Assembly: GCA_038087875.1 (NCBI GenBank)
Contig: CM075987.1
Coordinates: 16,494,001 to 16,558,000 of the forward strand
Source of the DNA: Malacoraja senta
Taxonomy: Eukaryota
Length of the DNA: 64,000 bases
Direction of reading: 5' to 3'
The translations under genes and the position numbers were made by a program. The notes under the pieces are model-generated. The model ran no database searches. It saw nothing but the letters and a program-made list of their open reading frames with translations, and was not told the origin of the DNA. Positions 1 through 64,000 of this stretch are shown here, piece after piece (position 1 is the first letter of the stretch; the number at the start of each line of letters is the position of its first letter).

Positions 1-1160
1 TCAGTTGAAGGTCAAATGTCCTGTGAACAAGTTCAAGTCACACATGAATAATGGCCAGCAATTGATGCAAGTAGTCATTGCTTCAGCAGGAATAACAAGC
101 ATGATCTGGGTAGAATTAAAGAGGAAACTAAATAAAAATAAAATTCTGCATAAAATATTTGAGACAAACCTATTGTTTTATGGAAGAGGTTGTACAACTC
201 AAACCTATGCACTTGCAGAAACATAGAAAAAAGCTATTTAGTCTCTCCTCACTGTTCAAATATTCATTGAGATCAATGGATGATCAGTGACCTTATAACC
301 AGACTTTCCTCATGTCTCTTTACACATCTGATTAATAAAAATCTGTTAAACTCAGATGCTAAACTTACAAATTATGTCGAGCATGAATTGACATTTGTGG
401 AACAGCGATTGAAATTTCTATTGTAAGTGTTTTCTAAAGTCACTTAGAATTTTAAACATTGACTCCAGGTCCTAATCAATATCTGGTGAAAGTATTTTTT
501 TCTCTATCAATACAATCTGCTTTGCTGAATATCCTGCTAAACTTTATCAAGTCACCACTTCTAAAATTCCAGAGAATATAACTCCTAGGTTCAGTCCCTG
601 TAATTTAATCACTGGAAGCAAGCAAGACTCTGAGAAATCTACACTCTCTCCGAGACCAATTCCTTAATAGGTTTGTAGAAACAACAAACTGTAGATGCTG
701 GTTAAGACAGAGAGCTGGAGTAGCTCAGCAAGTCAGGCAGCATCTCAGCTGAACATGGACAGGTGAAGTTTTGGGTTGGGATTCTTCATCTTCAGACTGA
801 TTGTGTGGGGGTTGGGAGGAGACAGATGGATATGAGGAGGGGCAGGACAAAGCCTGGCAGGTAAACGTCGCCTGTCCATGTTCTCGTGAGATGCTGCTAG
901 ACCTGCTGATCCAGTAGTCTGCCACTACTCTGTGCCTGTCAGTAGTCTGTTAGTACTCTGCATCTTCTTCTCCTTAATAAGCTTGGTGCCATAAGTTACT
1001 CACAATACTCCAGGCCTATTCTGACCACTGGAGCCCAAAAATAATTTCTATCTCTACCTTAGAAGACCACAATTCCATTTGCTTTTTTGATTTTGTTTCC
1101 TTATTCCTATCATGGCATTATTTCCTATAGCCACATGTCACTCCTCCCAATGGACCTACT

Positions 1161-1183
1161 CCCCCCCCCCCCCCCCCCCCCCC
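1161..1183. repeat. Poly-C tract (23 nt) within a decayed PLE-like segment
   Basis: Directly visible homopolymer. Confidence 0.9.
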
Positions 1184-1750
1184 AATGTGCCACATCCCAA
1201 CCTACTTCTCGCCCCTCCCTTCCTTCTGTATTCCCATCTGACATCATCCCTCCTTATTTGGTTCCACTCTCCACCTACCTTTCCTGTTAGATTCCAGAAT
1301 CTGCAGCCTTCATTACCTGTTCTGTTAGCATCTGTTGCCATCATCATCTGTCCATCCTCAACCCAAATCTTATCTGCCAATCAACCCCTCCACCTATTGC
1401 TTGCTAGCTGTTGTCTGACCCCTAGGGCTCTTCCACATATTTACACTGGCCATTTCCTCTCTACTTTTCAAGTCCAGGTGGAGCATCAAATCTCCATTTC
1501 CCTCCATAGGTACTGCCTGACTCACCGAGTTTCTCCAGCAGCTCACTTTTTAAAAAAAATGTAAAAAGATTTTCCACCTGAAATTATTCGACATAAGGGT
1601 GGGAAATTTTTGAATTTTAAAAGTTACACAGAAAATATTAAGAGCCTCTAAGAAGTAAAATCCCTTCTCAACAGGGGACAGAATGTTATGAATTGTGTCC
1701 CCCATTAAAACTTCATCCTTAAAAGTAAGAATCCACTTGCATCATCCTAC

Positions 1751-1807
1751 CTCCAGTTCTTTAGGGCTGACGGCACAAACTCCACTTTCACCATTCACAT
1801 AAGTTGT
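1751..1807 (-). CDS. GOLGA2: GOLGA2 exon 7
   Basis: ttctccattctccag|ACA...GAG|gtagga, 57 nt. TTYVNGESGVCAVSPKELE vs human SATCVNGEGPASSANLKDLE. Later exons lie outside the window. Confidence 0.92.
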
Positions 1808-3964: not shown

Positions 3965-4816
3965 CTACACAAGTAAAAATTAAAATGTAAGTGTGTAAAG
4001 AAAAGCCACCTTTTCCCAAAAATTTATCCAAAAGGATTTTCCCCAACCAGAGGGAGACACAAGAAACCGCAGATGCTGGAAGCTTAATTTTTTTTTAAAA
4101 AAGCTGCTGGAGGAGCTCAATGAGTCAGGTAGTGCCTGTGGAGGAAAGTGTACAGACAACGTTTCAGTTCAGGACACTTCTTCAGACTGTGTCCCAACCC
4201 GAAATGTAATTTGTCCATTTCCCTTCACAGATGTTACCTGGCATGCTGAGCTTCTCCAAGAGTTTGGTTTTATTTCCCAACTAGATAACTAGCGCCGAGA
4301 CCCGGGTTTGATTCCGACTACGGGTGCTGTCTGTACTGAGTTTGTACGTTCTCCCCGTGACCTGCGTGGGTTTTCTCCGAGATCTTCGGTTTCTCCCATA
4401 CTCCAAGGACGTACAGGTTTGCAGGTTAATTGGCTTGGTAAATGTAAAAATTGTCCCTAGTGGGTGTAGGATAGTGTTAATGTGCGGGGGTGGCTGGTCA
4501 GTGGGCCGAAGGGCCCGTTTCCGCGCTGTATCTCTAAACTAATTAACTGGTGCTAGCAAGGAAGAATTTCTATTCTTCCACTGAGCTAACCAAATCTGCA
4601 TCGGAGAACACAATGAGCAGGTTTCATTCCTCATCTGCCCCTGCCTGCCAAAAGCAGGTATATGGTGTAAACAAGATTATGATGTTGTGGCTTGACTATT
4701 ATTCCCATAGCAATGAAACATCTATCTAGACATACCTAACTAGAGAAAAATAAGCTGCAAGGATTTAGTTGAACAAATTGTTCTATCATATAGGCTCTCA
4801 AGAATCAGTCTTATTA

Positions 4817-7137: not shown

Positions 7138-10100
7138 CTGATGAAATAAAACAAACAGTTATTAAAATCATAAAGCCATGTACCCAATCTCTCAAAGCTG
7201 ATCTAACATGTGGGGGATGGACAAAGTGAAGAATCTTGAATTCATATTTTTCAAAGTTATTGTTTCTCAGCCAACAGTTAAGACAGCCAAGTTAGGCTTT
7301 AATAACTACATTCTTGACTGAACTAGTGATGATTGGCACACACAATTACATGATTCAATGAACATTGACCAGTTAATTAAAATAGGTAGGATTGCATGTG
7401 AATTGCCAATTAAAGCTATTTAAGCTCCTCTACAGAATGCCAAAATTGGCATTCTGGTTTCCATGCTGTATGGCTCCAGGAGTTTAGTATTTTGTTTTGA
7501 ATGAGAGTATTTGACCTGCAATTCAATTCCTGTAGGGATGGTGGAAATTGAGTTAATTGGGCAAATGAAATGGGGTACCAAACTATCTTGAAGCCCATTT
7601 GGTTGACCAATGACCTTCAGATATGGAAATGTGCTATCTTCTATTTGTCTGGCTTCCATGTGTCACTTGATCTCGAGCAAAGTGGGGAACTCTCCACTAC
7701 CTCCTCAATTCAGGACCAATTATTCTTGGACAATATATGTTGGCATTGCCAGCAGCATGCCGATCCTGTTGATGAATTAAAAAAATATTCACAGAACTTT
7801 TTGCTGCTTCATTCACTTACTTATTTTCAATATTTCTAGTGAAGAAAAAGGTTCATTTTGGCCATGTGGAATCAAACATATCAATTATCATTAACATGGA
7901 TTCTGTGCATTTGGTTGATTCCCAGGTGGAGGAGAGAAGTCTCCTGGGTTATAAATGACAGGGAAATCATTGTCCTACTACTGAACACAGAACATAGAAC
8001 AGTACAGCATACGAACAGGCCTTTTGGCAGAGAGTCTTCACGAAACATGATGCCAAGTTAAATTAATCTCCCTGCATATCCATATGCCCATCTAAAAGCC
8101 TCTTAAATGCCACTATCATATCTGTCTCCAGTCCTGGCAGTGCGTTCCAGGCACCCGTCACTCTCCAAAAAAAACCTCCATTGCACTTTGCCCCTTTCAC
8201 CTTAAACCTATGCTCTCTAATCTGACATTTTCACCCTAGAGAGAAGATTTTGACTGATAGAACTGCTTGCAATATTATTTCAAAATTTTAACATGCTGAA
8301 TAATCTTTTGAATATTGTTTAAGGGTTTAGTGAGGTCTTGACAACTTCATAAAACTAACATAAACCGAGGAACTGATGCACTTACTGGACGTTCATAGAG
8401 ATTTTCAGTTTAACTATCATGATTGTTTCACTAATAGCCTACATTTTTAGGCAATTGAGGCAAAAGAATTCGGACAGAATTTAATAACAAATGGGTATCC
8501 ATTACACTACATCACACTAATGGGTGCAGAGTACAAGTGGGACTTTATGCTCAAGGCAAGTAACATAGTAGGACCATTCAACTTTCAAATAAATTCAGGT
8601 CATTCACTTTTTGCATTGGTAACTCGAGCTAACAACGGAAAGACACAAATAAAAAAGTTATACAATTTAAAACCGGTATCAAATTATTATTTCAGGAGCA
8701 GGAAGAAAATGTTAGATCTTAGGGTGTTACCTGCTGTGGCCAGGTAGCATTCTATTAATTGACTGCTCTTTCTGAAAATCCTTTAAGGTTAGTTGCATTT
8801 CTACTTCCTTCATGATGATCCTTTTACTTGCATTCCCACTTTCATAATGAGACTTCAAAACACTAAAAAATCAGGCGATTTTTTTTCAGTGGCCATGAAA
8901 GAGAATAGTCAGTCACATGCATGTGTGTTCCATCATAATTTCTTATTGTTATTTCAGTATTTTGAGTCTATGCTGACTCACGGAGTAATCCCATTCCCCA
9001 ATAGTTTTTCCCCTCCAACTGTCCCTCTAACATTCCTATCAACTCCTCCAGATTTTACCTACTCACCCACATGCTAGGGGCAATTAACAATGACCAATTT
9101 TGCGATGTGGCAGGAAGCCGGAACACCAAGGGGAAACCCCTACTTGCAAACACCACACAGACACCACTCGAGATCAAGATCGTATGAAGGTTGCTGAATT
9201 TGGGTGACGGCACAAAGAAAACTGCTGAAATATGTTAATTCCAGTAAATATAGGTTACTCACCAGAGAAAATGTAACTATATTTTAATGTTATTCTATCA
9301 ATACCCCATCTTTATTTCACTTTTTTTTAAAACATGTTACAGTAGCACAATATTTATGTGCAGTAATGCAGCAACAAAATATACTGCACCTAACATAGGC
9401 TACTTAATATTGCGGAAACAGGCCCTTCGGCCCACTGAGTCCGCACTGACCAGTGATCCCTGCAGGTTAACACCATCCTGCACACACTAGGTACGGTTTA
9501 CACTTATACCAAGCCAATTAACCAACAAACATATCTTTGAGTGTGGGAGGAAATCAAAGATCTCAGTGAAAAAAGCACAAGGTCAAGGGGGGAACATACT
9601 AACTCCGTACAGATAGCACCCATAGTCGGGATCAAACCCGGGTCTCCAACGCTGCAAACACTGTAAGGCAGCAACTCTATGGCTGCGCCACCGTGCCGCC
9701 CATATCCCCGTAAGCCAGATACCAGATTATCCGAATTTTACTCGGATCCACCAACATTCAGATATGTTGGTGATTTGTCATCGTTCCTAATACTGCACAT
9801 CATTAATAGAATCAAGGAACTGCAGATGCAGGTTTACAAAAAAGGACAAGGTGCTGGAGTAACTCAGCCGGTCAGGACATCTGGAGAACATGGATCGGGG
9901 TGACGTTTCAAGTCGGGACACTTCTTCAGTTGGTTTTATACTAAGCTTTTGATAAGCTAAGTGCAGGAGTAAAACAGATTTTAGGCTCGTAAAACATTAG
10001 GAATTGGCCTGAGCTGTTTACTGATCAATTCCTGGTACATGGGCTTCAAATAATATCATGGAAAATTAATTGTTGAGTCAAAAATTCTGATCACACCTAG

Positions 10101-11849
10101 TTTGCATGCAAGAACGGTGAATAGAAGATTCAATAGAAATATGCATGATGGAAATTGATATCAACTTAAAAATAAAACAAGGATTTGTGGGCCATGGAAA
10201 AAGAATCAGGAAGTAGGAAGAACTGGATAATTCATTCAGAGAATCAAGGAAGTTGCAATGGGCTGAATATCCTTTTATATATAATGACACAGGTCTCATC
10301 TCATCCTTCCTCATTCACCTATTAAAATTGAACTCTGCTCCCCATCATCTTCTTTCGTTCATTTAACTAACCATTAAATGCCCTTTTAGATTTTGTTTCA
10401 ACTACTGATGAAGGTGAGGCAATCCATGTACCTCCCATTTTCTGCCGAAATAAGTTTCTACAGAATTACCCATTTGATTTCTCAATGACAATTTTAGGTT
10501 AATTGCCTTTGGTATTGCTCTTCCCACAAGCAAAACTCTTCAAAATGATAAACACGTCAACAAGGAAACATTTTTACCTTTGTTTTCAAAAAACAAAGAC
10601 CCAGTCTGTTCACTTGTTCCCAGCAGAATCAAACAGCAAAGCCTTAATTTATTTTTAAAGCAAATTACCTGCATCAACTCAACAGTTTGGGCCCATTATC
10701 ACAAACATTTATTACACGTCGCTTCCTCGGAGGTTTAACAAAACCACATGGAGCCTAGTGTTCTGCTCATCTGTGCACTTTCGATTCCATTACCAGAGGA
10801 ACTTATTTCTATCTTTTCAACGAGCTTAGCTTTCTCCACACATTTTCTACACTTCTAGGCATCTCTCCTAAAGTCTGCCCTGTCACTAATAATGTATTTT
10901 AAATCTTCAACTGCATATCATTCTTAGCTCTGCTCCAACTTAGTAATGCAACTTCTTCATAATCAAGTGGTTCCCGACTCGAGCCTTCTATTCTGCTCAA
11001 AACCTATGATGCAGCTCTGAGTCACTGCTGCTTTGCAGTGAAACTCTTTCTCCAGCCCTCCCTACCATGCTTACCAACTATACTCCTTTGAAAACTTCAA
11101 GGTTACTATTTTCTTCCTTCTACATAATCATAGTCTTACAGCGTGGAAACAGGCCCTAAAGCCCAACTTGCCCACATTGGTCAATATGTCCCATCTACAC
11201 TTGTCCCACCTGCCTGCATTTGGTCCATATCCCTCTAAACATGTCCTATCATTTCCTAACATTTTCCTCAACTATTCCCCTGTCCCCCACGGAACTCTCC
11301 AAGCCCAGATCTTTGAGTGATCCAACAAGAAGTCTAAGGATGAAGACAGATATAAAAAGCTTGAATAACTCAGCGGGTCAGGCAGCATCTCTGAATTAGT
11401 TTAGTTTAGTTTATTACCACATGTTCCGGGTACAGTGAAAAGCTTTTGGAGAAAAGGAATAGGTGATATTTCGGGTCGAGACCCTTCTTCAGACTGAGAG
11501 ATGGGAAAGGGGAACGAGAGATATAGACAGTATTTAGGACAAATGAATGTGAGATATACAAAAAGCAACAACAATCAAGGAACTGTAGAAACCACAATGG
11601 TCAATTATTGGCAGGAGGGATAGGCGATAACAGGTTACACAGACAGTGGAACTCACCAGGACGACAGTAAAACTAGTTCAACTACGGTGGGGGAGGGATG
11701 GAGAGAGAGGGGATGCAAGGGCCACTTGATGATGAGGATATTGAAAATGTATCATAAACACAACTGGAGTTGGGAGTTCTACTCACAATATAACTGTATT
11801 CCACAATTTTGATACGTTTGATAACAGTGAACTTAACAACACCTATAAA

Positions 11850-11987
11850 CAACACCAGTCTGAAGAAGGATCTCGACCCGAAACGTCACCCATTCCTTCT
11901 CTCCATAGATGCTGACTCACCCACTGAGTTACCCCAGCATTTTACGTCTACCTTCGATTTTATCCAGGGTCTGCAATTCTTTCTCAC
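11850..11987 (+). mobile_element. Short PLE terminal unit with hammerhead core
   Basis: TSD ACAACACCTATAAA (11836-11849 / 11988-12001); CTGAAGA...GAAACGTC at 11860-11887. Confidence 0.88.
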
Positions 11988-13844: not shown

Positions 13845-16429
13845 CTGAACAGTGGTAAAGAGACAGGATAACTCAGAGAAAGAGAGGAAGAAATGACAGA
13901 AGGTACAGCAAACAAAACCAATCTTACTTCCTTGGAATCCCATGAAAAGAACCATCATTTTGTGTGAAAACATCCATAATTTATATTTATTTTATGCAGC
14001 CCCCATTTGCAATACCCCTCACTGCATTTGCTGTGTGATCTGGAACTGATGTTCAAGGTCATCAGCAATCTTCTGAAATAAGTCCATATTTAGCAAACAT
14101 GTTATAACTTTTTTTTTAAACTGAAAAGTTAGCATCATACTTCAGTTGTCCATAGTTTTTATTTTAGAACAGCACTTGTATTCTACAGCTTTATAGTCAC
14201 ATTAACGGCATTGAAACGTTTTCTCCCCTTGTTTAAAGTAAATAAAATTAGATGCCACAAGTTCTATAAAAGCTAATTAACTTTCCCTTTAAATGAAAAG
14301 TCAACAATCTAAAAATGGCTTGGTCTTGCTGACCAATTTCTTCACATCGCTTTTCATTTACAGACTGTCCACAAATTAGAACTATTCAGCACACTTCCAG
14401 AATCTTCAGAATCCTATGCATATGCAGTGTTTAATTCAGAACAAACATAAGCCTAAAGAAAATATTCTGAAGTATAAGAAGTACAAAGTTATTAGAGGAT
14501 GTTATGAGGAGCCAGCAGATGTGGTGCAGGCTTTTGAGTAAAATCTGCACCGATGGTTTAGAGGAGGAAGGGCGGTAAATATATTGGCATATATTGAGAA
14601 TTGATTAACAGATAGAAAGCAAGAAGTTCAAATAAATGGACCCTTTTTCAGTTTGGCTGGCTCTAACCAATTTTAGGGGGTTTAGGGGGATTGGTATTTG
14701 GGCCCCACCCAGTTACAAACTAAACCATCACTTTGGATGAGTGGACCAGTCACCTTTCCAAAGTTGCCAGATGAGATGGAGAGTCGGTAGAAGAAATAGA
14801 GAGGCTTCAGGGGGATATAGACTAACTCCATTATTGGTTGGAAATAAAGCATATATCAAATAAGGAAAATTATGAAGTTATCTACTTTGGGGCACAAAAC
14901 AGATATATTTCATGATGGTGACAAACTTGGAAACTTCAATGTTCGAGAAACCCAAGTGTCCTTGTATGCAAGTGATTAAGTATCCGAATACAGCTCCTCC
15001 TTAATGTTACCTTGCTGGAGCTGTGCATGGATGGGAAGCAAGGGTTCAACCACATATCTCAAAGAAATACATGCTTCCATCACAATCCATGAGCAATATT
15101 TTTGTCCTGTTCAAACCTCTGGTACGGTTAGATTTCATTTAGACATTCATATGATTATTTTCTAACACTAAGTAGTGGAATAAATGTTGAATGCTCAGCT
15201 GACAGCCAAGGGCATCACGAGCATCTAGCATCAGGCAAATTTTAATGAACATCCTTGCTCATAACTATTGACTATTGCATTTCAAAGAGCAGAAAATCAA
15301 ATGCTGGGGAATAGGCAGAAGTTACTTACTAAACTGCCAGTTAAAAAAAAGATACATATTGCTGGAGTAACTCAGTGAGTCAAGCTGCCAGTTAACCTGT
15401 TTTTAAATTTGGTTGCTATTGCCTTTAACTAAGTTTAAAGGCATTCAATTATCCAATCAAATGTCTTACATCTTGCATGCAAATAGCAGATTGTGGTATT
15501 TAATGCAAGTAAGTTGGAGGTAATATTCTGAGACATAAATTTTACAGTTGGAGGAAAAGTAACTAGTTATATTTTGGCTCCTGATATAAAGAACAAGGCA
15601 TACACCATCAGCCAGGGTTCATTCATTAAAATTACAGCATCGATGGTTTATTTATCAAAATCCATACTGCTAATGCACACCTCCTTAATAATTGATAGAA
15701 TGTGCACACAACCTTAACTAGATAAGGTGCGTGTAAAATTGAGCCAAAATTTTAATTCCCACGGCAAATTAGTTGTCTCACCCAAAGCTGGAACAGGAAT
15801 AAAATTATTAGCCTCAGCATCTCCAGGCTTCAAGAAAAAGATAGTTAAGCATATCACATTAAGTAGTCTGCTGAATTTACTGTAAAAGTGTACACATGAA
15901 TAACGGCGAAAAAGACTCACAAGCGGCAAGATTTAATATCTTAGAAGAGAGAACAATCAAGAATTGAAAATAACATTCTCAGAAAATCATAGATGAAGGC
16001 ATTACGTGATGATTTCAGAAATAATTATCTGGTGCTGTGAGGATGCAGTTCTACTAATATGTATATGTGGAACAATAGCTGGGAGCCAATTAAATTCAAC
16101 CAAATAATTAAAATTAATATAAAAACAAACCAGTTGCTCACAATTCTTCCAACAAAATACTAACTGCATCAGAAACAAAAATCCTCAAATAGGAATGTAA
16201 CCATTTTCACATCCAGTTCTAAAAAGTTTTGAGAAATAAAGGACTATCTCACAAAAGAACAGAAGGTGAACCAAGGTAAATTCTTCAAATAATTCACATT
16301 CCTTCCATCAGGAATGCACAGGGGAGAAAGATACTTGCCAGTGATATCCATATACCACAAGTGAAAATAAAATTCACAAATCTAAAATCGGCTTTATACT
16401 TTGATGCAAATAGCCCGAGTAAAACATGC

Positions 16430-21154: not shown

Positions 21155-21279
21155 CTTTTGAAAGGAGAAACATCATGTAATGTATTGAAATCACTCAGCT
21201 TTCAAAAAATTTGTTCTACATGGGAGCATATTTTCACCACACAACTTGGAAAAGAACCATTTTTAAATAAGGGTGCTAA

Positions 21280-30657: not shown

Positions 30658-30659
30658 GG

Positions 30660-38070: not shown

Positions 38071-38212
38071 TAACAGTTTAATAGAAGTATTGACTCAGCA
38101 AAAATTGTTGTTTGGTATACAATTCTTCAAATTGGTAATTGCATGTTACAATTTGAAGAATTGTATACCAAACAACAATTTTTGCTGAGTCAATACTTCT
38201 ATTAAACTGTTA
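38071..38212. repeat. Perfect inverted repeat, 64-bp arms, 14-nt spacer
   Basis: 38071-38134 is the exact reverse complement of 38149-38212. Confidence 0.97.
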
Positions 38213-50837: not shown

Positions 50838-50988
50838 GGGAAGGAACTGCAGATGTGTGAGAAGGAACTGCAGATGCTGGTTTAAACCGAAGATAGACTC
50901 AAAAAGCTGGAGTAACTCAGCGGGACAGGCAGCATCTCTGGAGAGAAGGGATAGGTGACGTTTCGGGTCGAGACCCTTCATCAGAAAC
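50838..50988 (-). mobile_element. Short PLE terminal unit with CUGAUGA hammerhead core
   Basis: TSD AAAGCTGCTGTGT (50825-50837 / 50989-51001); minus strand CTGATGA-AGGGTCTCGACCC-GAAA-CGTC. Confidence 0.88.
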
Positions 50989-53900
50989 AAAGCTGCTGTG
51001 TTACACTGAGTGATACAAGATCTGAAAGTTACCTTATTTGAATCCAGGGCAATGCTTAATTATTTTCTTCAAGCAGGCCGTGGGTTTTTGTGGAGGGTTT
51101 TGCTGTTTGTCTTCTGGTCAAGTAGGGGAAGGAGATTTCTGTTCTTGATCACTATCTGTTGACAAAGTGAAATACGATTTTCATTCATATCAACTTTCTC
51201 TGGCAATCTCAGGAACACCCAATATTTTAAAGTATATTTGAAGTGTTCACTGTTACGGTGAGATGTAGCAAGAACTTACAAATGGCAAGAAAATGATATG
51301 AACTAGATACATTTATTTAGTCATTCGCTGAGAGATAAATGTTGGAGACGCAAAAAACGCAGATACCACAATACTGAACAATGCACAAAGTGTTGCTGGA
51401 AGATCTCAATGAGTCGGGCAGCATCTGTGGAGGGAATGCACATAACGAGACAGAATTCGGATCAGGACTCTTCTTAAGACTAAATGTGTCGGAAGGAACT
51501 GCTGATGCTGGTTTAAACTGAAGATAGACACAAAAAGCTGGAGTAACTCAGCGGGACAGGCAGCATCTCTGGAGAGAAGGAATGGTTTCGGGTCGAGACC
51601 CTTCTTCAGACTGATTGGAGTAGGAGGGAGCAAGCTGGGGAAAATAAGTACAATGCCTGGCAAGTGATAGGTGAAGGAATGAACTGCAGATGTTGATTTA
51701 CACCAAAGATAGATACAATGCTGGAGTAACTCAGTGGCTCATGCAGCATCTCTGTAAAAAAAAAAAGAATAGGTGATGTTTCGGGTCGAGACTCTTCTTC
51801 AGACTGTGAATTAGGGGAGAGGACTCTCGGGGGACTTTCCCCTGACATTCAGTCTGAAGAAGAGTCTTAACTTGAAAAGTCACATATTCCTTTTCTCCAG
51901 AGATGCTGCCTGACCCGCTGAGTTACTCCAGCATTTTGCGTGATAGGTGGATGCAGGGGAGAGGAGGAAGGGGGGACACGGTTGATTGGCAAATGGGTGG
52001 AATAAATGACAAAGCTAGAGATAGGCTTGTTCCTTCCTCTCAGAGAATGCTTTGGGATATTTTGCATTCAATTGCGAACACAGCCATAACCTCAGTTTTT
52101 TTGCTACATCTGAAGGCTGGCATTTCCAACATCACAGCAGTGCCTTGGTAACTGGATATTTTTGTGCTCGAGTCTCAGTTGTTCAAAACTTCAACCTTTT
52201 GTCTTGGAGGAGAGTGCTAAGTCCGAATCATTGTGTGAGACAGGGATTTGTAGCATTACTATCAAATCCTGAGGTTTACCAGAATGCTGCATGGGTTACT
52301 ACAATGGAATGTGTTACAAATGAGATACTTGTAACTTTGTCGGCATCCTTGATGTAGTGACTCTTTGCATACCTTGGGTGTGCAAAACAAAGAATATCAC
52401 TGTGATTTGTCAGAAGTAACAATAGATTATCATTCATTCTTTGGATGAGAGTACATTACTTAAACGGAGAGGTTGGACACACTTGGACTGTTTTCTCTGG
52501 TACTTCAGAGGATGAGGGGAGACCTGAGAGAAGTATATAAAATTATAAGGTATAGGTAGGGTAGACGGTCAGGGCATTTTTCCCCAGGGTGGAAATATCA
52601 AGGACTAGAGGGCATGGCTGTAAGGTGAGAGGGACAAAATTTAAATGAGATATATGGGGAAAATTTATTTTTAGTGGTAGGTGGCTGGAATGCATTGGTG
52701 ATGATTGAGGCAGATACAATAGTAGTATTTAAGAGTCTTTTAAATAGGTACATGGGTATGCAGTGAATAGAGGGATACTGATCATGTACAGGCAGATGAG
52801 ATTATTTTACCTTGGCATCATGATTGGTACGGGAATTGTGGATTGAAGGGCCTGCTCCCGTGCTGTACAGTTTTATGTTCTGAATAGGACCCCTTTCCCT
52901 TTGAGACTACCCCACCATTCATTACAATTATGCTTGAGCTTCTCTTCCGATTCCATTTTCCAATACTCTCCCTGTTTTCTGATTCCTTTAATATCCAGAA
53001 GTCAATCTCTGTTTTGAGTGAACTTTGCAACAGCCTCTATAACCCTCGCATAGTGAATTCCAAAGATTGACCATGCTCTGAATAATGAAGTTTCTCTGCC
53101 ATAAATGGCCCGGGCCCTGGTCTGAGACCTGAGACTCCAGTTTCTAGACATTCTAGCCAGGTGATAGAAACATCTGTTCAAGTCCTAAAATAAGTTTATA
53201 CATTTCAATGAGGTCACCTCTACTAAACTAGAGAAACCACATCACATTGCTCAATCCCACCGCTTACGGCAAACTTGCCATCCCAGAATGAGTCTGGTGA
53301 ATCTACAATGCACTCCTGCCAGGGCCAGTACCGGAATATATTTTTGGTAGGAAACCAATATTCTATTGTCCACAATACTCTAGATGTACATTTTAGTTTA
53401 TTGTCAGGTTTTGTTGCGTGCTATTTCACCAAGGCCTGCTGGTGGACTCGCAGGTCTCTGTTTCCCCCCTATAAAATGGTGAGGTCAGACTTACTACCCT
53501 CTAATCTGCACGATCCATTCTAGCATTTACAGAATTATCGAAGATGATCTGCTACCTCTCCAACCACCTCTTCCAAATCTCTGGTGTATTACGTCCTTAA
53601 CTTTTTAGTCTCAGTGAGTTTTCCAGTATTGTTTTGTTTTCCCTCAAACTAATTTATGTTAATTCCTTATTTTCTATAGTGACTTAATTTTCTGCTATTT
53701 CTAACAGGATTTTCATGCCTTCAACAATGAAGACGTGAATATATTCTACTGAAGTTAGCCTGTTAAAATATTTTAAGGATAACCTTTAGATCTCCCTCAT
53801 TGTAATAATTGAAACAAAAATATCCAGGCTTCCACACTCTACTTCTGAACTCCTAGCAGGCATTTATTTATTTTTTCAGGCAAATAGCAGGAAGCAAGTT

Positions 53901-56900
53901 TCATTACAGACTTTTATCATTTCCTGCTCTGGTTCCTTGTCCTTTGTCGTTACTCAATATTGAGATTATGTGGAGGGCAGTGACTTTTGCTGGGGCGTGG
54001 TTGCAAACAAACCAGCAATTCCTTGCTTTCCTGTGCAACTGATTATTTTTCCGTGTAAGAATCCCAGCAGAGTAGCAGGAAAGAGTTTAACAATGATGAT
54101 GGAAAGGGAACTGTAACAATGGAACTTTGCTTGATATCAGCTGATGTTGAGGTGAATAGTGGAGTTTGACAGAAATGGGGACAATAACCAAGTTGAAGAA
54201 GGGTCCTGACCAGAAATGTTCCCCGTCCATACCCTCCAAAGATGCTGCCTGACCCGTGGAGTTCCTCCAGCACGTTGTGTTTTACTGAAGAGTCCAGTCT
54301 CTGCATTTCATTGTTTGCCATTCTCTGCTATTGCCTTTCTTCGGGGCAAGGTGCTTTCTGTTAGTTATGTAACCAGGCAAAAGATAGATATGTATATCTC
54401 TAAAAGTACAGGCTTTGTCATGACTGGCGATGGCTAATGTACAAACGTTTGAATTTCTGAATCAACGTACGTAACATTGAACTTCACCAAGGGAGTTAAA
54501 TGGGCAATGACAATCAGACGACTCGTTTGCATCCAACATTGCCGACCACCTGTTTTAGAACAAATGAAGAGAGGTTGCAAAATTTAAAATGATTTGATCT
54601 TGGAATGTATTTGCCTGTTGTTGACCAGTGTGGACTCGTTACAACTTGGCTTCCCTATTTGGATACAATAACTGGTAGAGTTGCAGTCAGTCAAGAAGGC
54701 CGTCGAAGGGTACAGCTGGATATAAATCAATTACATATATGGGCAGAGGAATGGCAGATGGAGTTTAATCCAAAAAGGTGTGAGGTGTTGCATTTTGGGA
54801 GGTTGTACATAAGGGGAAAGTTAGAGTTAATGGCAAGACCCTCAACTGCATTGAGCAGAATACAAAGTGCTGGAATAACTCAGCATATGTGGAGCAAATG
54901 GACTGACATCGTTTCAGGTTGCAGCCCTTCTTCAAACTTGAAGGGACCCGACCTGAAACGTCATGCAGCCATTTCCTCCATGACTGCTGCCTGACCTGCT
55001 GAGTTACTCCAGCACTTTGTGTTCTGCTCAAGATCCCAGCACCTGTAATTCCATGTGTCTCCCCTTAACAGCATCAAGTTATATGTCACAGAGTTGTTAT
55101 TTTCCTCTCATTGAATCATTCTTGCTTGTTGCATGGTCACCAGTTTCTCTGTTACTTTTCCTGGGTGACCATTCCATATGAGTTGACCTTTCCTGTTTAC
55201 CTACTCGCAGATACTTAAGATGGACTAAACAGCTTGGCCTGATCCTGTCATTGTCCATGCGGGTTTAATTTTCAGCAGAGGTCATTAGAAAATAGAGGTG
55301 GACAAAGCCCATGCCATACCATCCCTTAAAAGACTTGTTTTTCCTTCACGTATATAAAATTATATTAATGTAAAATATGCCTGATTATGTTTGTGTTGTA
55401 TTCCGAATATTTGAATAGCTTCCAGGTTCTTTCATCGTAATGCTGGTGGACTATTTCCTCTTTTGGGCTTTGCTAAGCCAAAAGAGTGAAGAGTTTGTAC
55501 CGACTCTTACAAAGGGATTCTTACTCATTCTAACTGCAAAGGGAGGATTTCAACATATTTTCTAGTTTAAGGTCAGCGCTGAATAAACATTGTTTGGTGT
55601 GGCCAAATGCATGTGGTGTATACTTGAAAAGGAAAATAAAATTGCATGGTCAAATTGCAAGAAAGGAAAGAGACCAGGGGATGAATGAGACATTCACTGC
55701 CATCTTTTTAAGAAATATAATGGAAAAAGGGTGGGCCTCCTAGAACCTTGACATTAGGTTGGTGAACTTCAGGATGTGGATATCCTTTTTCTTTGTGTAG
55801 CTCACGTTTGTTTACGTCTAACTTTTTCGTGTATTCTATGATTTATTTTTTTGTTTATTTGATTTATAAAATATTCTTCCTTTTCAAATAATTTTGTCTA
55901 ATAAAAGAGGCCACCATTCTATATTTACAAGGGCATTTAATTGACATCCTTTTTCACCCTAAATCCCTGGGTCAAAAACTTTGCAGCGGGTAAGGTTAGT
56001 CTTGCAGGAAAATTGACTACTGTGCAATGCAACATTATTTATTTTAATAGTTAAATATTCAGTTGGCGATATTGGGAAAAATCTGGAAATTGAACTATGG
56101 TAAAAATATGACCGTTGACCAGGAAAGCAACGTTTTGTTTTGCTGCCTGAGGAGGGATTGGGATGGTTCCTGAATCACAACTGGAGTGGCAATGGCTCAT
56201 CGCTAAAATAATTTAATTTTATTGGAAAATATCCGCTAAGCACAGCTGTTTCTCCAGATAAATTACAAACATTTTTATTAAACTATATTAGTTAGTGCTA
56301 AAACAATGGTGATTAGGCAGATAAGATGTCATTAAATTCTTTAAAGTTGCATAATAAAACAAGATAAAATCCAGCCCACATCTGTGGAAAGAAACAATTA
56401 ATATTTTAGGTCCAAGATTGTTTGTTAGAATCTTGAGCACAAATGAAAGTGCTGGAGGAACTTAGCAGGTCAGGCAGAAGCTATGGAGAGAATAGACTGC
56501 TTATATTTCAGTTGAGACCATTTATAAGGAAGGAATGATAGGAAAAATTATTACTTTCTTGCAACTTAAGCAGAAGATCATGGCGAGAGTCAGTATCGTC
56601 ACCAAATAGTTAGCACAACTTAAATAAATTTGCCCTGTATTAACAACAGAAAATGGAGACGTGCATCAGACCAGGCAAAGTACACGGAGAGCAAAACAAA
56701 GTTAATGTTTCAGATCAATGCCCTGTGGTTTTGTTTAGCTTTACCTGGGGAATGGTTAAAATATGGAAGTTGTTGGCAAAAGGAGATGTTGAGGTGAATA
56801 AGGTAGAAGTATTTGAGGGGAAATTTGATTGGAAGTTCTGAGTGAAAAGTTATTATGCCATTAAAGTTAGATTATGAAGAATGTGAGGAGATTTAGAAAT

Positions 56901-59769
56901 GGCACAGATGTTTGTATCAATTCATCTCTGAATGAGCTGTATCCAGTGCTTTTTTGTTTGTAGACAAAAAGGTGCTGGCATGAATATCAATTTAAAAGAT
57001 AGTTACATTTATGAACACTTTTTCCCATTAATATACCCCCAGCCCCCCATCTGTTTTTGATTTTATGGCTAATTAACTTATAATTTAAGCTAATAACTAA
57101 AAAATAAAAAATCAATGCATATTTAAAAACGTGAAAATTTAGTTTTTAACCTTTTGGAGTTGCCAGTACGCAGTACCAGCACATACCATTACAAAAAATA
57201 AGAACTGGCTGTATCTATGCAGTTGTCAGCCTGATGAAAGGTCCCAAGCAAAAACCTAAACTATCTCCCCCCCCCCACAGATGCTGCCTGGTCTGCTGAG
57301 TTCCTCCAACACTTTGTTTTGCTCAAGATTCCGGCATCTGCAGCTCCTTATGTCGCTGTATCTATGTTGCACATTGCATGCGTTTATGTACAATTCTTTA
57401 GCACTTCTCTTTGAAAATGCAACATAAGCCACACATAAATTAAAACGCAGAGGCTGGAAAACTGAAATAAAAGACAAAATGCTGGAAACATGCCAGATAA
57501 AAAGATTTTCAATCTGACATATTTTGTGTTTCATTTTATGTTTCATTTTCTGTAGATGCTATTTGACCTGCTGAGTGTTTCCAGTGTTTTCTGTTTATAA
57601 ACCTCGTACGAGGTTCAAAATAGGACACGAGGCACTTCGCGACCAAACAGATACTATAAGGTTGGTCCAAAAGTGGAGCTGGCATCAAATGAAGGAGGGA
57701 GTAGCAAAGAGGTAGTTTAACTGATGAATTGGGAGCAAGCGGTGAAATATTTCTACTTAACAAGTAGAGATGACAACCCATCTCGGATCCCACCAAACCA
57801 AACTCATTCTTAGTTCTGGGAGACTGATCTGAGAACGACAATGTAAAAGAAGGAATTGGTGAAATCCTGAATTTTGCAGTGTAGAAGACAGTTTTTTAGT
57901 TTGTTGTGCCTGTGCGGGAGACATGTATGAAGGATTTGCCAGGACCATCTGGTGGAGGCTGGCTGGAGTGGAAGTGAGTGGTTGCAGTGATCAATCTAAT
58001 GCCAGGTTTGAAACTTGCAGGTGATAAACAGATTTTTAGTGCTCAATGACCACAGAACAAAGCAGCTTGTGGCTGGATGAGACTTGATTAAAGTACTACC
58101 ATAGAAATTGTTGGGCATACCTTCTGGTATTAAGGTTTGGGTGCATTGGGGCTAATTTATTCTGCACACAGAATAGCCCACAGCTATTTCAAATAAATTA
58201 CCATCCACCATATAGGTTTCACATATAAGAGTTTAATAGTGGGAACATATCCTTCAATCCACCGAGTCCATGCTGACCATGATCACCCGTTCACACTAGT
58301 TCTGTGTTCTCCCACTTTCACATCCGCTCCCTACACAAACTGGGGGCAATTTACAGAGGCTAACCTACATATCCGCATGACTTTGGGATACGTGAAGAAA
58401 CCGGAGCTTCCAGGGGAAACCCGTGGTCACGGAAAACGTGCAAACCCCACACCGACAGCACCCGAGGTCAGGATCAACCCTGGGTCTCTGGAGCTGTGAG
58501 GCAGCAGCTCTACCAGCTGCTCTATTGTGCCGCCCTGTGTTTACAGTGATAATTGTAGAAGAATGTTGTTGATGTGGTGCAGCCCTGTGGAGGAGATTCC
58601 CTTTGTCTGAATACTAACACATTCATAATTAGTTGGCAAGTATTATTCTTGGATACTCGCCCTATAATTACACGGGCGAGGATTCTCCTTTTTGTGATTG
58701 ACCTGGCAGGGCGAACAAAGCCCCAAAGCATTTCATTGCCGGTGGCTGGATCCAGACTTGCTTTGCTGCCATATGCCTCGAGGACCATGTAGTTGGTGAC
58801 TGAGTGAGGGTCTGTGAGCAGTGGGGTGAGAAGGCTTGGCTCAGCTGCAGTAGTGGGGACATTATGGTGTCTCCAAACAGAGCGATAAACATATTGCTGG
58901 AGTAACTCAGCGGGTCAGGCACCATCTCTGGAGAACATGGATAGGTGGCGTTTTGGATCGGGACACTTCTTCCTAGGGCTAGCAAATTGTGAAATTAAAA
59001 TCTCATTGCCTCCCCTTCTCCTTCATCCTAATGAATGCAAAACATTTCTCCAGGGTTTTTTTTAATATGGGCAGTCTGAAATGCAGTAGTGGACTGGCTG
59101 ATATCTTGGTCTCTCAGTTCATTGCAACGTCTCGCCATTTTCTTCCTTACATTTTGTTTCTTCTCTGTTGGCTCTATTTATGTCCCACCTCTTTCCTTTT
59201 TTTCCCGTTAATCCCAAATATCACTCTCCCATTATTGCATCGTGGCCCTGAGTAATCAGAAAGGAAGTAGTGTTGTGCTACAGGAAACATGATAGGAGTT
59301 TGTGTATAGCAATCTCCCACAAGCATCAAAGGAGGAAGTAACCAGACCGTCATCTATTTTAAATATCAGTGAGAGAGCAATGTAGGCCAGGGCACGAGGG
59401 GTGAGATTGCTCTTCTGTAAGCAGCCAATGCAATCAACTTGAAAATCAACAATGCAATGCCGAAATTTGAAAGTTTGCACCACCAGCCTCGGGAACATCA
59501 TCTTCCTTCAGTTATCAGGCTTCTGAACGATCCTTCCATTTGCTAGTCTATAGCACAATTCACCTCTCCACTCCTCTTTGCTCTACTTATTGTACTTGGG
59601 TATGATTTATTTGTATTTGTCAGTTTTGATAGCGTGTAAAACAAAGCTTCTCTCAGTACCTCGGTACAAGTGGTAATAACAACCCTAAATCTACACTTGC
59701 TGATGCTCACCATTTTCAAGGAAAAGAGACAGCAACTAACACTGTTTTATTTTTGTCTTTTTATCTCAG

Positions 59770-60164: not shown

Positions 60165-62908
60165 GTAAGTACAACATGACTGACTGCATTAAACATGCAG
60201 AACCAAAGGTGACAAGTAAGTGACTTACTTAAGACTAATTTTAAAAAGAGAGACATGTCATTTATTTGGAATGACATGCAGAGAAGATTCACAAGGATGT
60301 GGCCAGAACTCGAGTGCCTGAGCTATAGCGAGAGGTTGGACAGGCTCGGACTTCATTCCTTGGAGCAAAGCAGGCTGAAGGGGTGATCTTATAACGGTGT
60401 AGAAAATCATGAGGAGGATAGGGTGAATACATAGCCTTTTATCTAAGGTATGGGAATCAAAAACTAGAGGACATGGGTGAAAGGGGCAAGGTTTAATAGG
60501 CACCTGAGGGGCAACTTTTTCACACAAAAGGTGGTGAGTAAATGGAACAAGTTGCCAGAAAGGTAATTGATGCAGATACCAAAACAGCATTTAAAAGACA
60601 GGTACGTGGATAAAAAAGAAGGGTATGGGCCAAATGTAGGCATATGGGGTAGCTTGATGGGCCATCTTGGTCGGCATGGATGAATTTGGCCGAAGGTATC
60701 TATGATACTATGCCTATCAAACCACATTAATTTTTGTAGACCAGATCATGGTGGCCCAAAACATTTTACAGGCAATTAAGTTTAAAAAAAAAAAAAAAGA
60801 TTGTCTCCCTTGTATTGTCAAAAGCACTGCTACCACTGAGATCTATACAATAATGATCTGTTTACCGTGATATTAATTCAATTGGAACATACTACATGGA
60901 AACAAACCCTTTGACCCACCAGGTCCATGCTGACCATCGATGATAGGTTTGCACTAGTTCCCTGTTGTCCCACTTCTGAGTACAAACCCGCACGTCTTTG
61001 GGATGTGGGATGATTCCGGAGCACCTGGAGGAAACCGGCGCACCTGGAGGAAACCGGCGCAGTCACAGTAAGAGTGTGCAAACTCCATATGGACTGCACC
61101 CACTGTGAGGCAATAGCTCTACCGGCTGCACCACTATGTTGCGGCATTTGGATAAATGCTCTCCTCCAGGACACGAGGGAGTATTCTGATTGTTTTGTTT
61201 TGTGTGGATCTAAAGCATTCTCTGTTACTAAGGGAGCAAATGGTCTTGTTTTAATTTTCCCCTGAAGGACGCTGCCCACATAAGTGCGACACTCCCTCAG
61301 TTTTGTGCAGGATTGTGCGGCTGGAATTTTTTCCCGTGTCAGCAACAGGATTTGAATTTGCAATCTCTCGCCCTGGAGGCACCCGCCTGCTCTTTCACCA
61401 CAGCACTGCACATTGTACCTTAAAATTCTTTATCGAGCACACTTTAGAAAAATGTCATTACGCCTGTTTTCAATATTCTTTGAGTTCGTAAACTTGCCGA
61501 GTTTAAAAATACAGTATAGTGTATTTTTTCTTCCCCTTCCGATGCCCCTCCCTCTTTGGCCAGTCAAGCTGAATGAGCAGAGCCAAATGTGCTGTGTTCT
61601 GAAGGAAACAAGGTCAAAAAGAATACAATGTTCAGAATGCATTAATAATCACACTCAAGGCTAACTAAGGTTGAAAGAGTCCAGGTAGCTTTATTCATTT
61701 AGATTTGAGTTATTCAGTGATTTAATGGTGGGAAAAAAATACTCTTCTTCTGTTCTTTGTGACCCTCAGTGGGATTGGAAGTCATTTTACTTATTCATGT
61801 TTATGTCAGTGCAACATGACACGGCAATTTCTGCTCCTCTGCCTGGTCTCTGCCTTCGATTAGGCCAGCGTGGCTTCAGGGCATATTCTTAAAACATTTA
61901 AAAACAAGAAACAAATTACATTTATGGGGGGAAAAAAGGGTCTCCACCCGAAAAGTCACCTGTCCATAATTCTCCAGGGATGCTGCCTGACCTGCTGAGT
62001 TTCTCCAGCACTTTGTCATTTTGTTTATTAAACATCATGTAGAGTTCTACAGAAGGCTTGAACTCAAAGTGGATTCATATCCTCTCATCATTATGACATG
62101 TAAAATGTGAGCAGCAAGTGATCGAGAGCAGCAGGCGACAGGAACTCTGTCCGGTGTGGTTTGGCTAATGCCAATCTTGCTTCTCGGAGATCTACTCCAG
62201 GGACTTGAGCACAAGTTCCAGGCTGGCATTTGGAATGTGGTCTTAAGGAAACAGTGCACTATTTGAGATGCCATCTTTCAGATTGGCCATGGAACTGTAT
62301 AAACAAACTTTCTCCAGTATTTAGCCAAAATTTGTTGCTCAACCAACTCAAAGGACAAATGGTCTTTACTATAGCCTTGAGACACAAACTGCAGATGCTG
62401 CAATCCTGTGCAAAAGTGCTGGAGGAACTTATTGCGTCATGCAGCATCTGGGGAGGGAATGGACAGACGGCGTTTTGGCTCAGGACCCTTCTTTACACTG
62501 TCCATTCCTTCCTCAGGTGCCTGGTCCACTGAGTCCCTCCAGCACTTTGTGTTTTATTATAACATTGCTGTTCATGATATGTTGCCACACTGCCTATATT
62601 GAAAGTACTTCACTGGGTGCCACAACTTGCAAAAGACATTTATTGGCTAAGCAGAGACTTATCTTTTGGCAACAAAATTCTTATCTTTTGTTCATTACAT
62701 ACTAACAACACCATCTTGCCACTTTCCCCCCCCTTCCCTCAACCACGTGACCTTCCACTGGAGGATCCCAATCCAAGTCTGAAAACTATTAAAATAAACA
62801 ATCTAGAGCAGTATACTGGAGGAGCTGGAAATGTGATGTTAAAAGAGAAAATGCTGGAAATACTCGGGTCAGGCAGTATTTGTGAAGGAACTAAAACATT
62901 ACCTGTTT

Positions 62909-63112
62909 AAGAAGGAACTGCAGATGCTGGAAAATCGAAGGTAGACAAAAGTGCTGGAGAAACTCAGCGGGTGCAGCAGCATCTATGGAGCAAAGGAAAT
63001 AGGCAAAGTTTCGGTCTGAAGAAGGGTTTCGGCCTGAAACGTTACCTATTTCCTTCGCTCAATAGATGCTGCTGCACCCGCTGAGTTTCTCCAGCACTTT
63101 TGTCTACCTTTA
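62909..63112. mobile_element. Short fold-back PLE-derived element with hammerhead core
   Basis: Two inverted copies of the PLE 3' terminus; 16-bp TSD AAAACATTACCTGTTT at 62893-62908 and 63113-63128. Confidence 0.9.
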
Positions 63113-64000
63113 AAAACATTACCTGTTTTTCGTTCACCATAGAAGCTGTCTGACCTCGTGCATTTCCAGCATTTTCTGTTTTGTTTTATTGCCAGCTGCC
63201 TAGAAGTCAGATTTGTGTCTGGCATTGATGTACAGGATTTGTGCATCATTCTGGTGTAAAATTGATTGTCAGCTATACGGTGTGCAATTTGTTATCCCCC
63301 AGTAATGCACTGAGCATTAGTATAAGCAGCTGAGGAATTACGAGAATCCTCGAGCGAGGGCTTTGACCTGTGAAAACTATGGTAGAGTGGAGCAGATGAT
63401 TGAGGGTTACCAGTGGGACACATCAGTTTTTTGTGAAACTTCAACGTCAGGAAAACAACCCTCCTCTCTTCTCCTCTCACCGCTCTCAACCTTCCCCACC
63501 ATGCGACTGGCCCGAGGTGACATTTGGACAGATATAGAGACAGGAAGGGTTTCCAGGGCTATGTAGCAAATGCGGACAAATGGGACTAGCCCAGAAGACC
63601 AATTTGGTCAGCATGGACAAGGTGGGCTGAAGGGCCCGTTTCTGTTCTGTGTACTGCAAATACATTGCAAACGAGATTAGACAATATATCCTGGATTCAG
63701 GATATTGTATATGATGCATGAGGAGATGAGAGGATCTAATCCATTTGAATATGTATTTGAGGCTTCGATGCACAAAACGAGGTCATGTAATGATAGTTAC
63801 ATTTGCATGGGGCCTCCGTATATCACAACATATTGACGTTCCTGAGGAGCACCTGTGCGCTGCCAGTATGCAAAGACTCACAAGTGAAGGACACAATCTG
63901 GTAATAATCAACACCCGGAGAGGCATGCTATATTTAAACAAGGATTCCAGCATCATTGCTCCCCGTGTACACAGTGGATTTATAAATCTGCAGATACTGT

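Follow-up and report, generated by a model that had tools for sequence, protein, structure and literature searches.

The question raised by this locus is what kind of element makes up the short repeat that recurs along it. In the window analyzed here, that is, the whole stretch of 64,000 nucleotides of Malacoraja senta DNA (assembly GCA_038087875.1, contig CM075987.1, positions 16,494,001 to 16,558,000), a motif with the appearance of a minimal hammerhead ribozyme is found again and again, and an earlier reading made from the letters alone (hereafter the sequence-only reading) had proposed that the repeat is a retrozyme-like ribozyme module mobilized by a Penelope-like element (PLE), rather than an ordinary short interspersed nuclear element (SINE). 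Our analysis indicates, with a probability that we put at roughly 0.85, that the repeat is the 3'-terminal (pseudo-long terminal repeat, pseudo-LTR) module of a young and very prolific endonuclease-positive (EN+) PLE, and that the copies in the window are end fragments of that element.

The repeat is far more frequent than chance would allow. The hammerhead pattern CTGAWGA-N6-18-GAAAC has 13 matches in the window against a mean of 0.36 in shuffled sequence, none of 100 shuffles attaining 13, and a 31-nt box located 3' of the hammerhead box in the same repeat has 26 matches at three mismatches or fewer, where the expectation is 0. With a 126-nt module profile running from AGTCTGAAGA through GCAGTTCCTT, whose positions are called model positions below, nhmmer identified 49 copies in the window, and the CTGA (CTGAAGA) box is reached by 24 of the 49. 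All 16 clear copies listed in the sequence-only reading lie inside these matches, and the recurrence about every 2.5 kb that it described agrees with the measured density of one box-bearing copy per ~2.7 kb. For comparison, a random sample was assembled from 20 arbitrarily placed 10-kb pieces on other chromosomes (200 kb), in which the same profile detected 107 copies; the module accounts for 7.1% of the window and 5.0% of the sample, and the copies sit in introns and intergenic DNA. In the 1.94 Gb of genome searched, the 25-nt box CTGAAGAAGGGTYTCGRCCCGAAAC has 51,960 exact matches (26,290 + 25,670) and its reversed control has none, whereas the 31-nt box occurs 140,846 times. By extrapolation from the 200 kb, which is not a count, the module is estimated at ~10^6 copies genome-wide.

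The derivation of the repeat from a PLE is supported by its sequence, which is identical to the 3' end of an element with reverse transcriptase (RT) and GIY-YIG regions, and by its target duplications, tail and inverted pairs. When the coding copy at 17537-20513 was compared to the window by BLAST, each short copy aligned to its final ~130 nt. The open reading frame (ORF) of this copy (17517-20270, plus strand) gives an RT match and then a GIY-YIG match close to the C terminus, with a CX4CX2C motif between the two, and the domain order and motifs can be observed in the translation; the GIY-YIG match of a second PLE copy has an E value of 1.9e-4. As the sequence-only reading had stated, the module is found in the 3' region of the coding element, the hammerhead box at 20387 lying between ORF stop and element end, 117 nt past the former and 126 nt ahead of the latter. 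The boundaries of the coding copy are exact, because the long interspersed nuclear element (LINE) into which it is inserted is intact at three other places of the same window (23215-23280, 30975-31030 and 49330-49400) and because the insertion is flanked by a 14-bp duplication.

Longer genomic copies extend 5' of the equivalent of position 17537, and the PLE start codon was located in them. Of 1,490 candidate matches to this 5' region, 40 were scored, and each of the 40 shows 99-100% identity over 364 nt. Of 11 loci whose upstream sequence was available over 1.5 kb, three have the module positioned 5' of the 5' region, and the order of the unit at these three loci is the end of an upstream partial ORF, a C/T-rich 3' untranslated region (3'UTR), the module, 42 nt, and the start codon of a ~1215-aa ORF. 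Additionally, at 20 loci with a solitary junction, a partial copy whose length varies lies upstream of the 5' region. The longer copies have the partial-tandem pseudo-LTR layout of PLEs, and it follows from this layout that the end points of insertions lie within the transcribed unit. Moreover, since the start codon lies 42 nt past the module, reverse transcription would be initiated within a longer RNA, a mode demonstrated in vitro for PAc, the Poseidon element of Anolis carolinensis (Frangieh et al. 2024, PMC11167929).

Some further features of the coding elements can be mentioned here. A 72-nt direct duplication (17622-17771, 89% identical) is located in the proline/serine-rich N-terminal part of the PLE ORF, and longer PLE copies differ in the number of such N-terminal 72-nt-type repeats. 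By eye, an ATG in the conserved box (module 53-126, TTTCGG haplotype, e.g. 20437-20513) opens a short frame through the tail, which in full units stops ~43 codons on, just beyond the main start codon, and may be an upstream ORF. The LINE family (RVT_1 E 1.2e-33; 16280-17536 + 20514-20800, 22549-23525, 30979-31282 and 49316-49640) and the PLE are nested reciprocally, with the PLE inside the LINE at 17537 and LINE fragments inside PLE copies at ~21957-23600 and 49316-49640.

The ends of the short copies carry the second line of evidence. Among the 178 module copies used for end-point tallies, the 3' ends are bimodal and ~30 nt apart, with 72 copies ending at model positions 92-109 (short end) and 73 at position 123 or beyond (long end). 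Head-to-head pairs number 26, of which 8 are from the window and 18 from the random sample; 20 of the 26 combine a long with a short arm, one is long/long, none is short/short, and five have an arm that could not be classified; the ~30-nt tail is accordingly present on one arm only in 20 of the 21 classifiable pairs. Exact target duplications of 10-14 bp flank 10 short copies. Craig et al. (2021, PMC8557442) give as hallmarks of PLEs that copies are heavily 5'-truncated, adjoin an inverted copy truncated in the same way, and bear a 30-40-bp tail at only one of the ends, and in PAc both strands of AT-rich DNA are cut and extended, with internal initiation of reverse transcription (PMC11167929).

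These observations suggest the following course of events. The module, read 5' to 3', consists of a minimal type-I hammerhead box, ~65 nt, a first preferred end point, ~30 nt, and a second end point, followed in full units by the 42 nt and the start codon, and the stretch between the two end points is the PLE "tail". Judging from PAc and from the genomic pattern described here, the enzyme would cut both strands of AT-rich DNA and both ends would prime complementary DNA (cDNA), the majority of the cDNAs halting within the first 130 nt. The products observed in the window are of two kinds, solo ends of 100-130 nt flanked by target duplications, and head-to-head pairs of which a single arm has the tail; the hammerhead box moves with the module. 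The stubs in the window are probably not templates themselves and are most likely dead on arrival, because PAc requires template sequence 3' of its start sites in vitro (PMC11167929), and such sequence is absent from the dispersed stubs.

As to the hammerhead itself, the assignment to the minimal type-I hammerheads of PLEs made in the sequence-only reading is supported at the level of sequence, since the box fits every feature published by Cervera and De la Pena (2014, PMC4209133). Both main haplotypes contain the core C3 U4 G5 A6 N7 G8 A9 ... G12 A13 A14, the pair A15.1-U16.1 and a base other than G at H17; their sequence is CUGAAGA..GAAA-CG followed by UC or UU, which makes the cleavage triplet GUC or GUU. 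To these are added an additional A after A9, a G10.1-C11.1 pair, and a palindrome ACGU that replaces helix III. In 86 gap-free copies from the genome, CTGA.GA and GAAA are both intact in 50 and decayed in the remainder, model positions 27-31 read ACGTC in 30 and ACGTT in 21, and helix II is GGGU-CUCG-ACCC in 20 and GGGU-UUCG-GCCC in 12, the others being single decayed variants; the four helix II pairs are paired in 72-78 copies. The sequence-only reading had expected the catalytic core to be conserved in excess of its flanks. High conservation of the core was indeed observed (0.94-1.00), but the blocks at model positions 45-59, 68-82 and 108-123 equal it, which points to a core that is constrained in the source elements, though not uniquely. 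A lone monomer box is predicted to be inactive, with cutting to be expected only when two boxes are present on one RNA, such as that of a full tandem unit or an ORF-less array, or a protein assists: lone minimal PLE motifs do not cleave and dimers do so weakly (PMC4209133), and cleavage of PLE hammerheads as dimers is also stated in a review (PMC6765202).

Many copies genome-wide have lost 10-12 nt across the helix II/GAAAC palindrome, a loss that fuses, for instance, GGGTTTCG to GCCTATT or TTTCG to TTGCC, and the junctions of these deletions show short microhomology, as if the hairpin had been excised by slippage.

It is important to mention the observations that weigh against the reading given above, with regard both to the element and to its ribozyme. 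Both Pfam matches of the PLE ORF are under the curated cut-offs, namely 26.8 bits against 29.6 for RVT_1 (aa 401-570, E 4.9e-06) and 19.7 bits against 22.6 for GIY-YIG (aa 821-854, E 0.001). The tentative placement in a Neptune-like clade draws on one motif, the CX4CX2C linker, which is a mark of Neptune-type EN+ PLEs in Craig et al. (PMC8557442). Helix I, called weak in the sequence-only reading, is merely 2 bp, and in folding the hammerhead helices reach -4.2 and -1.3 kcal/mol against -11.4 and -20.0 kcal/mol for competing folds, where single helices were scored, since a dimer with both helix I stems is a pseudoknot and thus outside the folding program. Helix II is near-invariant among the 86 gap-free copies, the only structure-keeping change being U-A/U-G, and the stem II covariation analysis that had been suggested as a check shows no double, family-level compensatory change in them. 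The core, as said, is no better conserved than three other blocks of the module. Rfam gives no hammerhead at any module copy in the window, by gathering score or at E <=10, the only hammerhead row being HH9 at 43723-43790 (E 9.7), which is unrelated to the module; this miss is expected, because the motif has no helix III. Poly(A) RNA reads of a related species, mostly from embedded copies, contain no site, the predicted cut site included, at which many molecules begin or end. Finally, the 5' ends accumulate sharply at the 5' border of the box, which simple random 5' truncation leaves unexplained.

The RNA reads need some comment. The read depth of the module is 50-100 times that of PLE-specific flanks, both strands are equally represented, and 95% of the reads run into unrelated sequence. 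The equal strands and the run-on reads imply that these reads sample copies embedded in host transcripts and are therefore no test of PLE transcripts. The copy boundaries seen in them are located at the same three places as in the genome and adjoin AT-rich flanks.

The pile-up of 5' ends was analyzed in the 178-copy set, in which 97 copies extend to model position 5 or less. By eye, ~40 of the 97 continue into the 3'UTR, ~20 meet an inverted arm, and ~37 yield to unrelated DNA within ~10 nt. Where duplications bound the copy and the start is informative, 10 of 12 copies start between -7 and +7; the more complete arm ends at model positions 1-5 in 8/8 window pairs and 10/18 pairs of the random sample, and 3/11 upstream partial copies with a determinable start begin at position 0-1. 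A sequence TCAGTCT sits at this 5' edge and is preceded by a polypyrimidine tract and CAG. The former resembles an initiator and the latter a splice acceptor. In D. virilis Penelope, transcription starts in the pseudo-LTR, within an internal promoter composed of an initiator and a downstream promoter element (Inr/DPE; PMC2377424), and an intron ends at helix I of the hammerhead (PMC4209133), with which the tract and CAG directly 5' of the box can be compared.

We infer that run-off at the mRNA 5' end is the preferred reading of the pile-up. PLE mRNAs would start at the initiator-like TCAGTCT abutting the hammerhead, every mRNA would hold a complete reverse-transcription start region in its 5' leader, and the enzyme would often initiate in this leader, reach the capped end 100 or 130 nt later and run off. 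If true, run-off would explain why ~55% of box-reaching cDNAs stop within 10 nt of the 5' edge, why the complete arm of a pair ends at the box edge, and how the estimated 10^6 stubs came about. Splicing at the CAG was considered as well: spliced forms in which the donor-like AAG|GTATGC after the tail, or a donor-like site in the 3'UTR, is joined to the box have no genome-wide pattern matches (0 in both cases) and were rejected, and the poly(A) reads of the related species contain no splice joints.

Among the alternatives, the one that survives best holds that the box is no working ribozyme, and that the same bases are kept for a promoter or initiator, for the fold of an enzyme-bound RNA, or as a palindrome that joins two cDNAs. 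In its favour are the pile-up of 5' ends at the box edge, where the sequence is initiator-like, and the many head-to-head junctions located within the helix II palindrome. The equal conservation of other module blocks, the lack of covariation and the favoured competing folds can be read in the same direction, whereas all eleven core positions and the H17 rule hold in both main haplotypes. Hammerhead-less PLE clades proliferate well according to Craig et al. (PMC8557442), but the architecture recurs in PLEs across animals, with compensatory changes between families (PMC4209133). The experiments on PAc likewise bear on both sides: ribozyme mutations left insertion in vitro unchanged, and none of the reads terminated at the predicted cut, yet the PAc box does cleave, only in the presence of its protein, and its C3 and G8 mutants behave as expected for a hammerhead (PMC11167929). 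Two arrays in this genome whose units begin at the base right after the predicted cut (see below) also speak against it, and a box devoid of ribozyme function is an unlikely, though serious, explanation.

Considerably less probable is the view that the short copies form a self-standing, non-coding, retrozyme-like family, in which hammerhead-cut and perhaps circularized RNA would be copied in trans by the PLE enzyme, the module itself being what replicates. Support for it comes partly from outside the window. The junction between module end and 5' region occurs 392 times genome-wide, and among the 100 occurrences listed many form short-period arrays. The ORF-less arrays that were fetched have units of 254, 260, 275, 384 and 961 nt, with a box in each unit and up to 13 listed units, and within a unit ~105-600 nt from the start of the 5' region are joined, across a deletion that shows a few bases of microhomology, to the 3'UTR, the box and the tail. 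By this unit structure, the arrays fit the definition of animal non-LTR retrozymes, which according to a preprint (Li, Clavereau and Pollet 2026, 10.64898/2026.07.22.740005) are derived from PLE pseudo-LTRs (pLTRs) and occur in one cartilaginous fish. Nevertheless, all box-bearing array units retain at least ~105 nt 3' of the tail, a region that the dispersed copies are without. In the window, none of the 49 copies belongs to an array of equal units; three copies do adjoin one another in the same orientation (51359-51805), but they are unequal in length and not of one subfamily. Solo copies contain one box each, and the second box of a head-to-head pair is on the opposite strand. Furthermore, short copies of both main haplotypes match coding parents. 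The retrozyme-like character claimed in the sequence-only reading is thus not found in the window copies, which are solo or head-to-head 5'-truncated ends, and is found in tandem arrays of the same family at other loci.

Two arrays at separate loci are without the 5' half of the box, one with 138-nt units (x11) and the other with 165-nt units (x4), and in both the unit begins at the exact base following the predicted cut. The 138-nt unit is the 165-nt unit minus 27 nt, and for this reason the two arrays may not be independent. Units of this kind could arise if cleaved RNA, possibly as a small circle, were copied round and round. An excess of 5' ends at the cut site cannot be claimed from the 643 pattern matches found genome-wide (non-A at positions 25-27), since the 100 listed are mainly internal deletions across the helix II palindrome and inverted junctions, without a clear excess at position 32, and ~7/178 copies begin at model positions 29-34, no more than at neighbouring positions. 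That both hold together, the swarm being a by-product of internal initiation with run-off and the hammerhead nevertheless cutting in vivo, is a tentative proposal, which we consider possible but on the whole somewhat doubtful.

A 66-nt tandem repeat from an older version of the module (GAAACGTC to CACTCTGTG) was also found at several loci with the same unit boundary (G000:C1:2862450-2863150, 2792780-2793230 and 2699050-2699280). This satellite-like repeat keeps the 31-nt box and is without the 5' half of the hammerhead. The guess that its units span the stretch from cut site to short end proved wrong: each unit starts near model position 24-25, and the family is an older one.

An ordinary SINE would have a head derived from tRNA, 5S or 7SL and a tail borrowed from a LINE or PLE, and can hardly account for the copies. 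These are short, very numerous, target-duplicated and placed in introns and intergenic DNA, as those of a SINE would be, but Rfam gives no tRNA, 5S or 7SL match in the window (gathering score or E <=10), and the copies share no common head, their 5' ends lying at or in the box or continuing into the PLE 3'UTR and ORF; the label was rejected, in agreement with the sequence-only reading.

The resemblance to systems already described is close in several respects. With the minimal hammerheads of metazoan PLE pseudo-LTRs (PMC4209133), the box shares the type-I layout without a helix III hairpin, the short helix I, the unpaired base between A9 and 10.1, the G10.1-C11.1 pair, the palindromic 15.2-16.2, and the placement in a repeat flanking the ORF; as here, some of the published copies are close together on opposite strands, and most of the motifs are single and probably represent truncated PLEs. 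Helix II is 4 bp here and 6-8 bp in flatworms and flies, whereas the 2-bp helix I corresponds to that of the D. virilis variant. In number, the ~52,000 exact 25-mers compare to ~4,000 in coelacanth and ~9,000 in Xenopus quoted in the same paper, and the little sequence variety within this genome contrasts with the extreme variability stressed there. PAc (PMC11167929) shares a hammerhead ~100-130 nt 5' of the insertion ends, two end points ~30 nt apart (the tail), AT-rich flanks, and an apparent use of both DNA strands, which is read here from the head-to-head pairs; however, the PAc ORF begins in helix II and its start sites are within the ORF, whereas the ORF here starts 42 nt past the tail. 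The likeness to the Neptune clade of fish EN+ PLEs, as described by Craig et al. (PMC8557442), lies in the linker motif. The preprint by Li, Clavereau and Pollet indicates that animal non-LTR retrozymes share the pseudo-LTR-derived, ORF-less tandem arrays of 254-961 nt and the type-I box, but the window copies are not tandem units, and the 138- and 165-nt arrays are without the 5' half of the box. The schistosome elements Sm-alpha and Sj-alpha are likewise short, very numerous, hammerhead-bearing and non-coding; according to the review they consist of their own promoter and then a canonical hammerhead (PMC6765202), while no separate head or promoter was found here. In our literature search, no paper on PLE hammerheads of cartilaginous fish was found beyond the one species of the 2026 preprint. 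The type of element is therefore known, and this family appears to be an undescribed member of it at very large scale.

For the role of the hammerhead in PLEs, the published suggestions are transcript processing, a protein-assisted switch, or mere hitch-hiking, and this genome would be well suited to studying that role. The family is young, with 5' regions that are 99-100% identical, and huge, at ~5% of the sampled DNA; coding units, dead end stubs and ORF-less arrays are all present together; and sharp insertion boundaries allow the copying mechanism to be read from genomic footprints. For annotation, the dominant short repeat of the genome should be recorded as PLE ends and not as a SINE. 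Care is also needed in scans for RNA families, in which the head-to-head pairs mimic microRNA-like hairpins: they score sub-threshold against plant and animal microRNA models (e.g. 37497-37627 and 62957-63090), and these matches were rejected as inverted-repeat artefacts. The features of the family in the window are collected in Table 1.

Table 1. Coding copies, module copies and fragments of the Penelope-like element in the window. Model positions are those of the 126-nt module profile; a point in the strand column marks features with one arm or copy on each strand.
Feature	Position	Strand	Details
5'-truncated coding PLE copy, inserted in LINE	17537..20513	+	14-bp target duplication ACAAAATTCTTAAG at 17523-17536 and 20514-20527
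PLE ORF	17538..20270	+	C-terminal ~910 aa of ~1215-aa protein; RT, CX4CX2C linker, GIY-YIG (Pfam, translation)
126-130-nt 3' module of coding copy	20384..20513	+	hammerhead box, 31-nt box 20436-20466, short-end point near 20482, ~30-nt tail to 20513
Hammerhead box of coding copy	20387..20414	+	CUGAAGA, extra A, GGGU-UUCG-GCCC, GAAA, CG, UU; predicted cut after 20414
Second PLE 3' part	48297..49294	-	GIY-YIG region, 3'UTR, short-ended module; LINE fragment interrupts at 49316-49640; resumes 49738-49791
Third, older PLE 3' part	21279..23972	+	21279-21956, 23601-23797, module 23891-23972; LINE split ~21957-23600
Head-to-head pair	4062..4276	.	minus arm model 1-125, long end; plus arm 13-98, short end
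Head-to-head pair	37057..37253	.	minus arm 33-125, long end; plus arm 1-104, short end
Head-to-head pair	37448..37654	.	reads as ~130-nt hairpin; minus arm 15-125, long end; plus arm 3-101, short end
Head-to-head pair	47809..47985	.	minus arm 3-126, long end; plus arm 23-104, short end
Head-to-head pair, older subfamily	54853..55052	.	minus arm 1-98, short end; plus arm 9-124, long end
Head-to-head pair	62386..62557	.	minus arm 2-123, long end; plus arm 34-96, short end
Head-to-head pair	62913..63112	.	minus arm 18-125, long end; plus arm 2-100, short end, box sense to AMP-binding gene strand
Three abutting copies, direct order	51359..51805	-	51679-51805, 51493-51612 (+ ~65 nt 3'UTR), 51359-51481; sole tandem arrangement in window
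Short-ended arm	51851..51942	+	head-to-head with 51679-51805 copy, gap 46 nt
Tail-to-tail arrangement, older subfamily	32605..32769	.	plus copy model 20-125; minus copy 1-56
Solo short copy, long end	31421..31543	-	model 2-126; 14-bp duplication AGTAGAATTAGGCC
Solo short copy	11857..11981	+	model 1-125; target duplication ACAACACCTATAAA
Solo short copy	50862..50985	-	model 3-126; box CUGAUGA..GAAACGUC; target duplication ACACAGCAGCTTT
Solo copy, older subfamily	57228..57349	+	model 1-126; target duplication GCTGTATCTATG
Solo short copy, short end	28236..28330	+	model 2-96; GAAA decayed to AAAA
Solo copy, older subfamily	9814..9929	-	model 4-126
Solo copy, short end	41647..41743	-	model 1-96
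Old copy	684..797	-	model 2-125; runs into C/T-rich 3'UTR, degenerate box
Old copy	54194..54311	+	model 5-125
Old copy	56442..56525	-	model 7-91
Copy with 3'UTR and box	11445..11495	-	model 1-51; 3' part 11341-11394 (model 47-100) set apart by insertion
Copy truncated within box	41099..41187	-	model 7-95
Copy truncated within box	58874..58972	-	model 6-104
Copy truncated within box	61933..62044	+	model 7-120
Copy truncated in helix II	48160..48230	+	model 17-84
Fragment without 5' half of box	863..921	+	model 25-88
Fragment beginning near predicted cut site	42159..42228	+	model 29-98
Box-less fragment	1497..1543	+	model 40-86
Box-less fragment	15345..15388	-	model 55-98
Two box-less fragments	31601..31739	-	31661-31739 (model 47-125), 31601-31651 (model 54-107)
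Box-less fragment	33489..33547	+	model 64-125
Weak fragment	57551..57598	+	model 48-95; E 1.5e-4
Weak fragment	62815..62890	-	model 42-121; E 1.5e-4
Weak fragment	63113..63188	+	model 24-100; E 8e-5

With regard to neighbouring genes, the sequence-only reading had placed some of the copies in sense orientation to GOLGA2 or SLC27A4 pre-mRNA. The first gene was not recovered, as no GOLGA2-type Pfam domain is present among the 172 ORFs scanned, a test that short coiled-coil exons could easily escape. For the second, an SLC27A-like gene is supported by a single AMP-binding exon at 59633-60223 (plus strand).

Several other elements were noted in the window. Another LINE is located at 44299-46731 (plus strand), with an endonuclease-exonuclease-phosphatase domain and RT in two frames, and decayed pieces of a Tc1/mariner transposase, HTH_Tnp_Tc3_2 (E 1.6e-15) and DDE_3, are found at 5600-6710 (plus strand). 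A 134-nt, AT-rich, near-perfect hairpin at 38075-38208 reaches 75.5 bits against a plant microRNA model (E 9e-13, below the gathering score), and a Tc1/mariner (Sleeping Beauty-type) transposase fragment (38679-39158) follows after ~470 nt. The hairpin probably represents a miniature inverted-repeat transposable element (MITE) or a terminal inverted repeat rather than a microRNA.

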